A stretch of 64,000 nucleotides of DNA, from NCBI GenBank assembly GCA_965202805.1, contig OZ241869.1:1920001-1984000 (forward strand). The letters run 5' to 3'. Position 1 is the stretch's first letter. The number at the start of each line of letters is the position of its first letter. The translations under genes and the position numbers were made by a program. Positions 1,240 to 5,424 of the stretch are shown here, one piece after another. The notes below the pieces were generated by a model. The model was not told the DNA's origin, did not search any database, and saw only the letters and a program-made list of their open reading frames with translations. Source of the DNA: Longimicrobiales bacterium. GTDB lineage: Bacteria > Gemmatimonadota > Gemmatimonadetes > Longimicrobiales > Gaopeijiaceae.

Positions 1240-3273
1240 ATGACTGACAAAGCGGAGAGTCCGGGGACTGAACCCCTGAGCCTGGTCGACGAACTCATCC
1301 TGATGCTTCTCGACGACAAGAGCGGTTACTTTCACCAGGTATCCGGCTGGCAACTGAACTGTGCCGTAGTCGGCGGAGTGCTGGCGGAACTCTCCTTCCG
1401 GTCGCGGCTCGACTCGGACCTGGAATCCCTGTTCGTCGTGGACCGGGCCGAAACGGGAGATCCCGTCCTGGACCCCATTCTGAAGGAAGTTGTGGACGAG
1501 CCGGGCCAACACAATGCCCGGTACTGGATCGAACGTCTCGCCCCCCTTGCGGAGTCGGTCATCGAGCTGACTCTGGCGCGCCTGGTTGAACGGGAGATCC
1601 TCCAACACCACGACGGCGATTTCTGGACGCTGGCTCCCACCGTCCTGCATGGGCAACAGGACGGGATGTCTGCCGAAGACGCGTCCAACTCGTTCATCAA
1701 GGTGCGCATCGGCCAGGTTCTCTTCGGCGACGAGATTCCCACCCCGCGGGACATCGTCATCGTATGCCTCGTCAACACGTGCGACCTCTTTCGCACGATT
1801 TTCCAACTCGATGAAAGGGTGGAGGAGCGGATCCAGCACATCTGCCAGATGGACTTGATCGGTCGGTCCATCGCCGATGCGGTCTCTCGGAACCTCGTCG
1901 GCCCGATCCGCAGACGTTCTCCTCTTGCCAGGAGGATTCCGACGGTTCGACTGTCCAGGCTGCTGGGGAACCCGCATGTCCGAGACGGCAACCTGAGCGC
2001 CTTGTTCGGGAATCTCGCGGAGGAGTACGGCCCCGTGTTCCGCATCCGCCCTCCCCTGGCAAAGCCCATGATCTTCCTGGCCGGACTCGAGACGAACCGC
2101 TGGGTGCAGAAGCACGGGCGTGCGTACCTTAGAACGAGGGACTACTTCGGTGACTTCGAGAGAGTGTACGGCGCGGCCGGCGTCCTGCCCGCCCTGGACG
2201 GCGCCGATCACTTCCGGCTTCGCAAGTTCCTGTCGCCGGCCTATTCTCGCGCGAGGCTGGAAGGTCAGGTGGACAAACTCTACGACAAGGGGCGCGCGTA
2301 CATGGCGACCTGGACCGTTGGGGATTCCTACCGCGCCACGTCCTTGTGCCGGGCGCTGATCAACGCCCAGCTTTCGCCGCTGTTCATCGGCGTCGATACG
2401 CAGGATCTCATGGACGACCTGATGGTGTACAAGGAACGCGCCCTCAGCGTGCACATCGCCAGAACCCTGCCCAAATTCACACTGAATACCCCAGGCATGA
2501 AACGCCGGGCGAGAGTCCTGGACACACTGATGCAACGGGTGTTGCAAGCCAATCCGCCCGCCCGCCGGGCCGAGCCCCCGCAGAACCTGGTGGACGACTA
2601 CCTCAGCCTGCACGCGAGCGACCCGCAGTTTCTCCCGGAGTCCAACCTGCTCTTCGCTTTTTCGGCAGCCCTGATTGCCAGCGTGTACCTCGGTGATACG
2701 TTCAGCCTCACGGTCTACGCCATGGCGTCGCAGCCGGATCTTTACGCCAGGATCCAGGCCGAAGCAGATGCCCTGTTCGCCAACGGCGATCCCGAGAAGG
2801 AGGATTTCACCCCCGCCAGCATCGATGTGACGCGCCGCTTCCTAATGGAGTGCGTGCGCATGTACCCGATTGTGCCCATGTCCATTCGGAACGTGATGAA
2901 TACCTGCATGGTCGAGAACCACGAGCTGCCTTTGGGGGAACGGATCCACGTCGCCATGACCGCCACACACTACATGAGCGAGGTCTTTCCCGAACCCCAC
3001 AAGTTCGACATCGACCGCTTCCTGCCGTCGCGCCGTACGCATGACAGCCTCGGGTTCGCTCCGTACGGGCTGGGCACGCACAAGTGCCTTGGCACGCGGT
3101 GGATGGAGATGCACCTGGCGGTCAACCTTCTGATGCTCGCGCACTACTTCAAGATCGAGGTGTCGCCGGCGAAGTACGTGCGGAAGCTCCGATTCAATCC
3201 CTTCCCGTCGATGAAGCCGAGCAAGAAGCTGAGGTTCCGCATCTCGGAGCAGCGACGCGAACTGCCCGCCTGA
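1240..3273 (+). CDS. Cytochrome P450 with N-terminal GPP34/GOLPH3(Vps74)-like domain
   Basis: ATG at 1240 after GGAGG; N-term LVDELILMLLD...GGVLAEL...TGDPVLD...LVEREIL matches the GPP34 pattern; C-term ExxR (ECVR), FPEPHKFDIDRF and heme motif FAPYGLGTHKCLG. Confidence 0.85.
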   Translation: MTDKAESPGTEPLSLVDELILMLLDDKSGYFHQVSGWQLNCAVVGGVLAELSFRSRLDSDLESLFVVDRAETGDPVLDPILKEVVDEPGQHNARYWIERLAPLAESVIELTLARLVEREILQHHDGDFWTLAPTVLHGQQDGMSAEDASNSFIKVRIGQVLFGDEIPTPRDIVIVCLVNTCDLFRTIFQLDERVEERIQHICQMDLIGRSIADAVSRNLVGPIRRRSPLARRIPTVRLSRLLGNPHVRDGNLSALFGNLAEEYGPVFRIRPPLAKPMIFLAGLETNRWVQKHGRAYLRTRDYFGDFERVYGAAGVLPALDGADHFRLRKFLSPAYSRARLEGQVDKLYDKGRAYMATWTVGDSYRATSLCRALINAQLSPLFIGVDTQDLMDDLMVYKERALSVHIARTLPKFTLNTPGMKRRARVLDTLMQRVLQANPPARRAEPPQNLVDDYLSLHASDPQFLPESNLLFAFSAALIASVYLGDTFSLTVYAMASQPDLYARIQAEADALFANGDPEKEDFTPASIDVTRRFLMECVRMYPIVPMSIRNVMNTCMVENHELPLGERIHVAMTATHYMSEVFPEPHKFDIDRFLPSRRTHDSLGFAPYGLGTHKCLGTRWMEMHLAVNLLMLAHYFKIEVSPAKYVRKLRFNPFPSMKPSKKLRFRISEQRRELPA

Positions 3274-3284
3274 GGCGCCACGGA

Positions 3285-4331
3285 ATGCGGCTGGGCGAAC
3301 TGTCGAAAGCGCTGTGGGATGCGTCCCGGGGATCGGGCGTCGCGCGTCGCGTGCGACACTTCGACGGCTGGGTCAACCGGGCGGTGCCGGAGGCCGGAGG
3401 CGCGGGCGGTTACGACCACGCGGAAACGGTCAGGGACTACTACGAGCTTTGCAACGGCTTCATGGTGTGGAGCTGGGGCGAATCCCTGCACTTCGCGCCC
3501 CTTTCGCCCAACGAAAGTCTGGAGGAGTCCAAGGTCCGGCACCAGCGCGCGATGATCTCCAGGTTGGAGCTGGAACAGGGCATGACGGTGGTCGACATTG
3601 GTTGCGGCGTCGGCGGCCCCTTGCGCCGTGTCGTTCGCGAGGCCGGCGTCAGGGTCGTGGGAATCAACATCAATGAGATCCAACTGGCGGAGGCGAAGAG
3701 GTTGAACGCCGAGGCGGGGCTCGATCATCTGGTGGATTTGAAGAGGTGCAGCTTCATGGACATGAGCGCCCTTGAGGACGACACCTTCGACCGGGGCTAC
3801 GCCATGGAGTCAACATGCCATGCGCAGGACAAGCAACGCGCCTTCGCGGAGATACTCCGCGTGCTGAAACCGGGTGCCCTGTTCTGGGGTCAGGAAATGT
3901 GTCTGACGGACCGGTTCGATCCGACGGACGGACGGCACCGGGCTGTCAAGCAGGATCTCATGCGCGGTATTGCGCTGCACGATATCGCCACGTTCGGGGA
4001 AGTGAACCGCGCGCTCGAAGCCGCGGGATTTCAAGTCATCGAGGGAAGGGACTGGAACGTCCAGGAGGGACCCTCCACGCCCTGGTATCAACCAATGGAG
4101 AGTCGCCACGGGACATTGGGGAACGCCCTGCGAAGGCTTCCCTGGGGCCGCAAGGCGATCATCGCGGGATCGAAGCTGGCCGAGGTATTGCGGATTTTTC
4201 CGAATGGTTCGACGGAAGTCGTTCGGCTCCTCGATCGAACCGCGGAGGCGTACGTCGCGGGCGGCAAGACGGGTATCTTCACGCCGCTGTACTGTTTCCT
4301 GGCTCGCAAACCCCCAGACTCGACGGGCTAG
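3285..4331 (+). CDS. Sterol 24-C-methyltransferase-like (ERG6/SMT family) SAM-dependent methyltransferase
   Basis: YYELCNGFMVWSWGESLHFAP (SMT region I-like), VVDIGCGVGGP (SAM motif I), YAMESTCHA (region III-like), C-terminal GGKTGIFTPLYCFLARKP; starts 11 nt after the P450 stop. Confidence 0.88.
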   Translation: MRLGELSKALWDASRGSGVARRVRHFDGWVNRAVPEAGGAGGYDHAETVRDYYELCNGFMVWSWGESLHFAPLSPNESLEESKVRHQRAMISRLELEQGMTVVDIGCGVGGPLRRVVREAGVRVVGININEIQLAEAKRLNAEAGLDHLVDLKRCSFMDMSALEDDTFDRGYAMESTCHAQDKQRAFAEILRVLKPGALFWGQEMCLTDRFDPTDGRHRAVKQDLMRGIALHDIATFGEVNRALEAAGFQVIEGRDWNVQEGPSTPWYQPMESRHGTLGNALRRLPWGRKAIIAGSKLAEVLRIFPNGSTEVVRLLDRTAEAYVAGGKTGIFTPLYCFLARKPPDSTG

Positions 4332-5424
4332 GTCGCTCGATCCGTTCCTCTTTCCGTGCTCCTTTTCGAGATCGCATCGTCGCCACGCCCAGACTTAATT
4401 CCGGATAGAACTGACGGCAATACAGGCGGTACTTGCCGATCGGGCCGTCGGCCCGGCAGAGACGCGGCGGAGACCGGTAGCGCTTCCGCTCCCAGATGAC
4501 CACGTCCTGCGCCACGAACCGTCTCTCTTCATGCATCACCATGCGGTTCATCAGCCTGTTGCGGAGCTTCCTCGGCAGGAATCCCATGCCCACGATGTAC
4601 CGCCCCGGCTTCCGGACCTCCCGCGCCTGGCTGACCAGGGTCAGCTCGACGAACTCGCCGTCGACGGGGGTCGAGAGGACCCACAGCCTGGAGTCCATGC
4701 CGATCGTCTTCTCGTGGAATTCGACGAACGAGTAACCCAGTCCATGGACATGCGTGACGGTCGACACATCGGAGACGACGTCGATCAGCCCCGCGATGGT
4801 GTGGACGCTCCTGAAGTCGAAGCAGCTCTTCAGGTACGCGCCGTCGATCGAGAAGGCCGTCGGTTCCACGTCGTGGTAGCCGTGCGTGTACTCCAGGTGC
4901 TCCACGTCCACCGAGTTCTCGGTCGTTTCCTGCGGATGGCCCCGGAAGCGCATGGTGGCGAATCGCAGTCCGCTCCAGTCCGCGCCCGCGGGTGGCTCTT
5001 CCGGCAGGCGCCACTGCGGTTCCCGTCCGCCGGCGCCATACCAGGCGAAGACCATGCCGAGGATCTCGGTGGTCTCGTAGAGCTTCAGCTTCGCGGCCCG
5101 GGGCGGCGGGGCGTTGGGCGTGGCGACGCACTGGCCGGTGGTGTCGAAGGTGAAGCCGTGGAAGGGACAGACCAGGCAGCCGTCCCGGATGGTGCCGCCG
5201 GCCGCCGGCCCCAGGTGCGAGCCCAGGTGGGGGCAGAACGCGTCGGCCACGCAGACGCGGCCGTCGTCGTCGCACCAGGCGACGATCTCCTCGCCCATCC
5301 AGGTCTTCTCGATGAGCTTCTCTTTCCGCAGGGTCTCGCGGGTCGCGATGAAGTACCATCCCTCCGGGAACGGAGGAAGTTCATCGAGGCGGCGCGGGAC
5401 CCGGCCATTGCTGTTGCCGATCAT
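4279..5424 (-). CDS. Rieske non-heme iron oxygenase/desaturase, Neverland/DAF-36 / KshA-like
   Basis: FPEGWY, Rieske CPHLG...CPFHG, mononuclear Fe ENSVDVEHLEYTH, C-terminal QDVVIWERK...DGPIGKYRLYCRQFY; start at ATG 5424 inferred. Confidence 0.85.
   Translation of the reverse strand: MIGNSNGRVPRRLDELPPFPEGWYFIATRETLRKEKLIEKTWMGEEIVAWCDDDGRVCVADAFCPHLGSHLGPAAGGTIRDGCLVCPFHGFTFDTTGQCVATPNAPPPRAAKLKLYETTEILGMVFAWYGAGGREPQWRLPEEPPAGADWSGLRFATMRFRGHPQETTENSVDVEHLEYTHGYHDVEPTAFSIDGAYLKSCFDFRSVHTIAGLIDVVSDVSTVTHVHGLGYSFVEFHEKTIGMDSRLWVLSTPVDGEFVELTLVSQAREVRKPGRYIVGMGFLPRKLRNRLMNRMVMHEERRFVAQDVVIWERKRYRSPPRLCRADGPIGKYRLYCRQFYPELSLGVATMRSRKGARKEERIERPSPSSLGVCEPGNSTAA

Follow-up and report, generated by a model that had tools for sequence, protein, structure and literature searches.

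The window analysed here, a stretch of 64,000 nucleotides (C1:1920001-1984000) from the single-contig genome of a Longimicrobiales bacterium (4.02 Mb, 98% complete), carries at its left end four adjacent genes encoding an RND (HAE1-like) permease, a fusion of a GPP34 domain with a cytochrome P450, an enzyme of the sterol methyltransferase (SMT) family and a Rieske non-heme-iron oxygenase with a KshA-type catalytic domain (Table 1). Together these genes make up a discrete cassette that is shared across bacterial phyla and whose products are predicted to oxidise, methylate and export a lipid, probably a sterol.

Gene content, boundaries and spread of the cassette

The open reading frames (ORFs) and spacings listed for this locus in an initial annotation were reproduced by ORF listing and translation, and its domain assignments (ACR_tran, GPP34, p450, Sterol_MT_C and Rieske/KshA_C) by Pfam. 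The RND and P450 genes are separated by 31 nt, with a GGAGG motif about 12 nt ahead of the ATG at 1240, and the P450 and SMT genes by 11 nt; the SMT and Rieske genes are convergent, their 3′ ends overlapping by 53 nt. The DNA of the window is GC-rich, and a promoter and terminator scan of positions 1-6000 returned nothing beyond the expectation from shuffled sequence.

Table 1. Positions of the cassette genes and edges, in window coordinates unless the contig (C1) is given
Feature	Position	Strand	Remarks
RND (HAE1-like) permease, 3′ third	3..1208	+	Last 401 codons in window, ends at 1208
RND permease, whole gene	C1:1918014-1921208		1064 aa; start 1986 nt ahead of window
GPP34-cytochrome P450 fusion	1240..3273	+	677 aa; published 'GPP34_L' architecture
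SMT-family enzyme, distinct clade, here 'SMT-2'	3285..4331	+	348 aa; Sterol_MT_C and Methyltransf_11
Rieske non-heme-iron oxygenase, KshA-type catalytic domain	4279..5424	-	381 aa
Right cassette edge	5425..5745		Empty-site homology resumes at about 5745, shortly before amidase start at 5763
Left cassette edge	window -2088, outside window		Stop codon of Spondin_N-domain gene

The limits of the cassette can be read from two genomes of the same genus (G174 and G232), in which blastn and junction alignment reveal an empty site of 153-162 bp in place of the 7.8 kb present here. DNA homology to these genomes ends at window position -2088 and restarts at 5745, just ahead of the amidase gene. The 7.8-kb insert contains the genes for the RND, P450, SMT and Rieske proteins and no others, which makes the cassette a discrete indel of four genes. 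The initial annotation had treated the RND permease as a mere neighbour of the other three genes, a view that does not hold, since the permease sits inside the indel and recurs in the cassettes of relatives, in many of which it is 82-91% identical. Three cassette-less genomes of the genus keep the downstream amidase at 90-94% identity, and in another genome (G286) the same site holds the cassette, but RND-P450-SMT is inverted there and the RND gene is only 74% identical at the DNA level. The GC content of the cassette is 63.6%, against 68.4% for the genome, and no convincing flanking repeats or att-like sites were found at its edges. The gene directly upstream codes for a Spondin_N and Ig protein (L081:14648-15925); together with a Phenol_MetA_deg porin, this protein accounts for the genes ahead of the RND permease, where no membrane-fusion protein was found.

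To place the cassette in a wider context, SMT-specific peptide patterns were matched against contigs representing one genome per species, yielding at least 599 stretches, at least 556 of which encode a relative of the SMT. The best 80 of these at least 556 relatives (70-92% identical) were fetched by their SMT alone. Across these 80 loci the recurrent ORFs are the SMT (80), the GPP34-P450 (75-76), the Rieske oxygenase (70) and the RND permease (50), as opposed to only one or two loci for the ORFs upstream of the cassette. Searches with tblastn within 10 kb on either side of the SMT gave a P450 hit at 75 loci, compared with 70 loci for the Rieske gene and 50 for the RND gene, several of the misses falling on contigs of only 3-6 kb. 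The grouping of these genes is not due to chance. The initial annotation had held that a lack of co-location in relatives would count against its proposal; the genes are co-located across many phyla, and that test therefore fails to overturn it. At the closest relative of the window locus (L001) the GPP34 domain (L001:3726-4424) contains one in-frame stop and the SMT lies about 4 kb from the P450, rather than 11 nt, a state that could reflect decay, insertion or assembly error.

Linkage was also assessed in a sample of 401 genomes from the phylum of the window, which as relatives are not independent. The SMT (at 66% identity or more) was found in 25 of these genomes, the fusion in 42 and the Rieske gene in 36; every one of the 25 SMT genomes has both other genes, and GPP34-P450 is present in 36/36 genomes with the Rieske gene. 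As read from the table of gene places, the fusion and the Rieske gene lie within 5 kb of each other in 29 of these 36 genomes, 8-12.5 kb apart in four, on different contigs in two and far apart in one. Cassette matches in this sample are confined to two of twelve families and occur in six of ten other genomes of the same genus.

The 80 loci span 11 labelled phyla: Gemmatimonadota (Longimicrobiales, Ca. Palauibacter), Latescibacterota, Acidobacteriota, Chloroflexota, Nitrospirota, Nitrospinota, Binatota, Thermodesulfobacteriota, Actinomycetota, Pseudomonadota and Rhodothermota. Median identities between phyla reach 77% for the SMT, 68% for the P450, 62% for the Rieske oxygenase and 84% for the RND permease, with maxima of 93-98%; as a scale, a vertically inherited squalene-synthase-like gene drops to 44-57% identity inside the window's own family. 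The pairwise identities of the four genes correlate (rho 0.31-0.64). The SMT tree is shallow, with the outgroup SMT-1 at 3.1 substitutions per site, and the phyla interleave in it (19 label changes against a minimum of 10), clustering only partially. Carriers with a stated source were recorded from sponges or corals, and six 'sponge metagenome' runs from two studies contain 0.67-0.88 of the sampled words of the stretch; no RNA data set was found listed as containing it. The names Palauibacter irciniicola and rhopaloidicola point to sponge hosts, and we take the bin prefixes RHO, IRC, COS, APA and Plut to denote sponge or coral hosts as well. Horizontal movement of a cassette among symbionts of sponges and corals is the best explanation for this distribution.

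Further genes accompany the cassette in relatives. ORF clustering linked an FAD oxidoreductase with an amine-oxidase fold to 38 of the 80 loci (75-96% identical), a membrane-fusion protein to 23, an outer-membrane factor to 13 and a beta-barrel protein to eight. The FAD oxidoreductase is a fifth member of the cassette set that is unlinked in this genome, where it lies among unrelated genes (C1:462888-464252, 85% identical); among solved proteins it comes closest to LkcE (4e-25) and to an entry for a fatty-acid double-bond isomerase (1e-9).

Predicted activities of the encoded proteins

The fusion protein matches GPP34 at residues 15-215 (Pfam, 2e-31) and p450 (2.8e-33). Its heme-thiolate motif [FY]xxGxxxCxG (YGLGTHKCLG) and its ExxR motif (ECVRMYP) are both present in all 74 orthologous high-scoring segment pairs (HSPs). 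In both sequence and fold the solved P450s nearest to it are CYP51s, headed by that of Methylococcus, with identities of about 20%; orthology to CYP51 was rejected on the basis of this low identity and of a separate CYP51 that stands beside the fusion in a Nitrospirales locus (L044). A fold search with a model of the fusion (mean predicted local distance difference test score 70.7) gave about equal scores to CYP51, CYP184, BM3 and CYP3A and thus offers no clue to the substrate of the P450, and a search of the ESM Atlas with the P450 domain returned generic 'cytochrome P450' clusters only. The GPP34 fold was recovered with a profile of 15 domains, which matches GOLPH3 (3kn1) at 1.1e-10 and Vps74 at 1.9e-8. 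In the setting of the cassette, the GPP34-P450 looks like a membrane-tethered lipid oxygenase.

Paralogues of the fusion, about 40% and 31% identical to it, were observed at loci L004, L005, L038, L042, L046, L052, L058 and L077. The paralogue at about 40%, and not the 80% type, adjoins a Rieske gene in three genomes (G337, G375 and G150), and several lineages can be found within one genome. The genome analysed here also encodes a stand-alone GPP34 protein (C1:1060751-1061308, L083:7700-8566; 4.9e-45), 39% identical to the domain of the fusion, in a gene that sits among housekeeping genes with no adjoining P450.

KshA is a 3-ketosteroid 9a-hydroxylase and Neverland/DAF-36 a cholesterol 7-desaturase. 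The Rieske protein matches KshA_C (4.1e-24) and Rieske (7e-17) in Pfam, and its closest solved relatives are the KshA steroid 9a-hydroxylases (3.8e-21 to 2.1e-19). The ligand motifs of the cluster (CxH...CxxH, here CPH...CPFH) and of the catalytic iron (DxxHxxxxH, here DVEHLEYTH) are conserved in 64 of 64 orthologues, and the gene is the sole KshA_C gene in the genome. NCBIfam added no equivalog for any of the cassette proteins, a KshA equivalog included, and an identity with SdmA was rejected at 33.3 bits against a cut-off of 600 (NF052579). Similar bacterial proteins carry the cluster name 'cholesterol 7-desaturase' in the ESM Atlas, an automatic label that we regard as a lead only. From the invariance of their motifs, the P450 and the Rieske oxygenase are both predicted to be working enzymes.

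The SMT-2 protein matches Sterol_MT_C (1.5e-15; 57.5 bits, cut-off 21.7) and Methyltransf_11 (1.9e-17), and its S-adenosylmethionine (SAM)-binding Region II, DxGxGxxGP, reads DIGCGVGGP, the motif being found in 68 of 80 orthologous HSPs. Region I is altered: typical SMTs display FYE[YF]GWGxxFHF, whereas the window protein has FMVWSWGESLHF, with the residues F-M-V-W-S-W-G-E-S-L-H-F and hence M81, V82, S84 and L89, so that both 84-GWGxxFHF-91 and Y81-E82 are absent from it. The consensus of the SMT-2 clade is FMVWGWGESLHF, from which the window protein deviates by S84; this position (residue 63 of the protein) is occupied by S or A here and in a few close relatives and by G in most orthologues. 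Among 104 representatives of the family in which Region I could be read, Y81 occurs in 90 and M81 in five, F89 in 94 and L89 in seven. The available text of 10.64898/2025.12.19.695621 gives 25 residues as conserved in working SMTs, including 84-GWGxxFHF-91, and reports G at position 84 in every SMT tested.

An orthologue of this protein has been assayed. Gene 2682229270 of Brown et al. 2023 (PMC10070321), listed there as '2 of 2' and as 35.6% identical to yeast ERG6, encodes a protein that shares 77% identity with the window SMT. The supplement of the same study reports that desmosterol was converted to (epi)codisterol by the '1 of 2' enzyme of 'Nitrospira sp., coral reef', and four of its 24 metagenomic SMTs failed to methylate two test sterols. 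The Nitrospirales locus L044, from a coral metagenome-assembled genome (MAG), encodes in order CYP51, ERG24, SdmA, SdmB, SMT-1, the flavoprotein, a beta-barrel protein, the KshA-type Rieske oxygenase, SMT-2 and GPP34-P450, which fits the gene numbers 2682229278 down to 2682229270 in that supplement; the '2 of 2' enzyme is therefore the 77% orthologue of the window SMT.

The RND permease matches ACR_tran at 7.1e-155 over its full length and at 8.4e-60 over the part inside the window, and scores 408 bits on NCBIfam RND_permease_2, below the cut-off of 1250. By labelled phylum, it was found in the cassettes of 13 of 13 Latescibacterota, eight of eight Acidobacteriota and 18 of 24 Gemmatimonadota loci, and in none of 11 Chloroflexota, two Actinomycetota and two Nitrospirota loci. 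Its occurrence in the cassettes of double-membraned phyla and its absence from those of Chloroflexota and Actinomycetota, together with the membrane-fusion and outer-membrane proteins encoded in relatives, fits export across the outer membrane. Homologues of these tripartite partners occur elsewhere in this genome at 62% and 51% identity.

Sterol supply and the function of the cassette

The initial annotation had noted the lack of an oxidosqualene cyclase (OSC) and a squalene epoxidase in the window and had asked for a search of the rest of the genome. The lack was confirmed and extends to the genome: sterol-pathway families had no match among the other 38 ORFs scanned in the window, and SQHop_cyclase_C/_N and squalene epoxidase (PF13243, PF13249, PF08491) had none in the complete genome, which is thus devoid of OSC/SHC as well as of squalene epoxidase. 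Likewise, tblastn with the L044 proteins found no orthologue of CYP51, ERG24, SdmA, SdmB or SMT-1 in the genome, the CYP51 query giving nothing above 28% identity. Among 35 chromosome-level carriers of the cassette, a full-length cyclase was detected in seven, a weak partial match in three and none in 25, leaving 28 of the 35 devoid of a full-length cyclase. A search for the 3Beta_HSD family was uninformative, as it matches 14 of 14 control genomes. A link of the cassette to sterols is provided by three of the 80 loci (L044, L050 and L058), in which it adjoins CYP51-ERG24-SdmA-SdmB, with SMT-1 next in L044 and L050.

We consider that the cassette is probably a mobile unit whose enzymes modify a sterol of external origin, most likely from the host, and whose pump exports the product. 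Since the bacterium cannot cyclise squalene, we propose that a sterol would be taken up from the host or from neighbouring cells. The P450 and the Rieske oxygenase would then oxidise or desaturate it at the inner membrane face, the GPP34 domain possibly holding the P450 at the membrane in place of a transmembrane anchor. The flavoenzyme may act on a double bond, to which the SMT would transfer the methyl group of SAM, and the RND pump would carry the product outwards, to the outer membrane or out of the cell. The claim of the initial annotation that the locus tailors sterols, rather than making or degrading them, thus stands as far as genomics goes, on the strength of the missing de novo genes, the co-location of the cassette genes and the Nitrospirales cluster; the activities of the cassette enzymes are predictions from their sequences, and the individual reactions put forward in the initial annotation (C24 alkylation, C7 desaturation or 9a-hydroxylation, and C14 or C22 chemistry) are candidate reactions.

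Several observations weigh against this reading. The SMT-2 clade has Y81M, E82V and F89L, and the window protein G84S in addition, with respect to the residues of working C24-SMTs, and the assayed orthologue may belong to the enzymes that are inactive on desmosterol and 24-methylenecholesterol. No membrane-fusion or outer-membrane partner adjoins the RND permease in this genome, and neither a reductase or ferredoxin partner nor a sterol uptake system was found in the cassette, to which the search for a reductase was confined. The labels of MAGs are fallible, the nearest locus being labelled Rhodothermales and the rest of its clade Longimicrobiales. Finally, genes of the SQS_PSY family are present in 34 of the 35 carriers, many as tandem pairs, and a squalene-synthase-like gene is present here; the substrate could therefore be a linear triterpene of the cell's own making.

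This last point leads to the alternative that the cassette methylates, oxidises and exports a self-made lipid, such as squalene or another linear isoprenoid, which we judge unlikely. Botryococcus has SMT-family enzymes that methylate squalene and botryococcene, and the alternative accommodates the prevalence of SQS_PSY genes in carriers that for the most part (28/35) have no full-length cyclase, the carotenoid cluster and the squalene-synthase-like gene of this genome, and a Region I unlike that of sterol C24-SMTs. The squalene-synthase-like gene here is solitary, and its best NCBIfam match, squalene synthase, is below the cut-off at 122 bits. It is inherited vertically: 50 of the family's 69 genomes have it, the four cassette-less genomes of the same genus among them, so that it shows no phyletic coupling to the cassette and was rejected as a coupled partner. 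SQS_PSY also matches eight of 14 control genomes. In addition, the catalytic domain of the Rieske oxygenase is of the steroid type, the cassette adjoins a de novo sterol cluster in three of 80 loci, and the restriction of GPP34-P450 to sponge symbionts reported in the main text of PMC11706023 better suits a host-derived substrate.

A variant of the proposed sterol modification concerns the SMT, which perhaps is not a C-24 methyltransferase and instead methylates another carbon of a host sterol, so that the cassette would make and export unconventional sponge sterols. We hold this to be quite unlikely, and the hints that suggest it are the (epi)codisterol product of the Nitrospirales SMT-1, the rebuilt Region I and the occurrence of the cassette in many phyla. 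The divergent SMT would use a double bond placed by the partner oxygenases or the flavoenzyme, candidate sites being C-26/C-27 in delta-25 sterols, codisterol for example, or else a carbon of the ring system, the type of position that STRM enzymes methylate. 26-methyl sterols derive from codisterol. If the variant were true, the 26-methyl sterols that underlie the 26-methylstigmastane biomarker would be products of bacteria devoid of sterol synthesis, which would pass them on to the host by export.

The cassette might otherwise comprise late steps of de novo sterol synthesis, left behind after loss of the early pathway or fed by neighbouring sterol-producing symbionts, an account to which we attach little probability. 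It agrees with the CYP51-ERG24-SdmA-SdmB genes, and SMT-1 in two cases, that adjoin the cassette in the three loci named above, and with the ERG24-CYP51-LSS clusters that the available text of PMC9531527 reports in 115 of 537 Ircinia MAGs. It has to contend with the lack of a full-length cyclase in most complete carriers (28/35) and with a cassette that behaves as an independent indel within one genus; moreover, all catalytic motifs are intact, so the cassette is not decaying. This account overlaps with the uptake and modification of sterols proposed above wherever neighbours supply the sterol.

Slighter still is the probability that GPP34 proteins, the P450 fusion among them, are secreted binders of host phosphatidylinositol 4-phosphate (PI4P) that block phagosome maturation, and that the neighbouring genes are incidental. 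This role as a secreted PI4P-binding effector was proposed for GPP34_L in PMC11706023, whose main text describes 656 GPP34-P450 fusions that form one clade and are confined to sponge symbionts, these belonging to many phyla, as well as rare GPP34-Rieske fusions, with GPP34_L genes expressed in an Aplysina sponge metatranscriptome. The GPP34 fold, confirmed here, agrees with it. In GOLPH3, according to the available text of PMC5170606, the R90L substitution largely abolishes PI4P binding; the position equivalent to R90 is V44 in the window protein, and all 74 orthologues have V, A, I or T there, although the alignment to GOLPH3 is weak (E 1e-10) and the mapping uncertain. The same weak profile alignment pairs R171 of GOLPH3 with E and R174 with I. 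Both arginines, we assume, form part of the PI4P pocket. Nor does the fusion, or for that matter the SMT or the Rieske protein, have a signal-like N-terminus as read from the sequence. An effector is also hard to reconcile with a heme ligand and ExxR motif invariant in 74 of 74 orthologues of a P450, which needs heme and a redox partner, and with the tight linkage of the fusion to the Rieske gene (36/36), the SMT and the pump.

Steroid catabolism, in which the Rieske protein would be a KshA opening ring B together with a ketosteroid dehydrogenase, is most improbable, for in spite of the KshA_C domain and of KshA proteins as best solved relatives, the partners of the gene in the cassette are an efflux pump and a SAM methyltransferase, which is anabolic, and not catabolic genes, the genome has no second KshA_C gene and no NCBIfam KshA equivalog was matched.

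The modification of acquired sterols would have consequences beyond this genome. The cassette occurs in at least 556 species-level genomes, mostly of bacteria unable to make sterols, and if the proposal is true, symbionts may rework the sterols of their hosts, a route not considered in the related literature compared here. Steranes whose side chains are unusual serve as the oldest chemical evidence for animals, and the argument built on them depends on which organisms make the precursors. The GPP34-P450, which has been presented as a hallmark of symbiosis with sponges and for which a block of phagocytosis was the proposed role, would be recast as a lipid oxygenase.

Outside the cassette, the window contains amidases, transporters, eukaryote-like repeat proteins, one further P450 and a defence island. 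The second P450 stands alone (35634-37232, +; p450 1.2e-28), has no GPP34 domain and lies between a Sortilin/BNR gene and an S15 peptidase gene. Eukaryote-like repeats are found in the Sortilin/BNR protein (1208 aa; 32465-36091, -) and in a protein with LRR and bacterial-Ig domains (1525 aa; 42324-46901, +), and such proteins fit a host-associated lifestyle. A low-GC stretch at 18578-26987 (55-60% against 68% for the genome) carries defence genes on the minus strand, coding for a McrC-like protein (McrBC), an AAA_5 McrB-like ATPase, Z1-domain and HATPase_c_3 proteins and a C-5 cytosine methylase; adjoining it are a DAO-family fragment (27193-27591) and a full DAO gene (28396-30555). A gene for an AAA_14 and DUF4143 ATPase occurs three times in the genome, twice in the window (7524-8678 and 30786-32063) and once near the unlinked flavoprotein (L082:4359-5705). 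Elsewhere in the genome, an operon-like run on one strand (L084, C1:268001-280000) comprises genes for three P450s, a sulfotransferase and an MpaB/Lcp-type oxygenase, along with a CysN/CysC fusion and a CysD-like gene for the supply of PAPS. This run resembles a pathway whose product, a lipid or some other metabolite, is oxidised and sulfated, and a tie to sterol sulfates is speculation.

Comparison with known systems

The initial annotation had presented the combination of genes as undescribed. No publication on the combination was found, nor any that joins the literature on SMTs with that on GPP34-P450, the supplement of PMC11706023 not being covered; its parts, on the other hand, have been described, the SMT orthologue by Brown et al. 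2023 and the GPP34-P450 in PMC11706023.

The SMTs of Brown et al. 2023 (PMC10070321), and of the follow-up 10.64898/2025.12.19.695621, belong to the same superfamily and come from the same sponge and coral habitat, where Kelly et al. 2022 also report an enrichment of SMTs in Ircinia MAGs (available text of PMC9531527). The clusters of Brown et al. are, however, de novo pathways with a fused squalene monooxygenase/OSC, ERG11, ERG24, sdmA, sdmB and SMT, all of which are missing here; from the components of a de novo cluster, OSC, squalene epoxidase, CYP51, ERG24 and SdmA/SdmB were not found in this genome. The window SMT belongs instead to the second, more divergent copy (M81, V82, L89). The terms 'P450' and 'Rieske' do not occur in the main text of Brown et al. 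2023 or in the available text of the follow-up.

GPP34_L (PMC11706023) has the same two-domain architecture and the same habitat as the fusion described here. Two features set the present fusion apart: its gene stands second in an RND-P450-SMT operon on which a Rieske gene converges, and R90 of the PI4P pocket is not conserved in it. The terms 'sterol', 'methyltransferase' and 'RND' are absent from the main text of PMC11706023, flanking genes being the subject of its supplementary Fig. S11, which was not covered.

With KshA and Neverland the Rieske oxygenase of the cassette shares the Rieske [2Fe-2S] and KshA_C domains with intact metal ligands; it is distant from KshA (E about 1e-21), and has neither a catabolic context nor an adjacent KshB-type reductase. 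SdmA, which belongs with SdmB to the bacterial C-4 demethylation of sterols, is likewise a bacterial Rieske oxygenase acting on sterols, but the window protein scores 33 bits against the cut-off of 600 and has KshA_C, whereas the SdmA of L044 scores 415 bits on the SdmA model and has VanA_C and not KshA_C. Similarly, CYP51s, the sterol 14a-demethylases, are the nearest solved relatives of the P450 by sequence and fold, but at about 20% identity, and in the Nitrospirales locus the bona fide CYP51 is a gene separate from the fusion.

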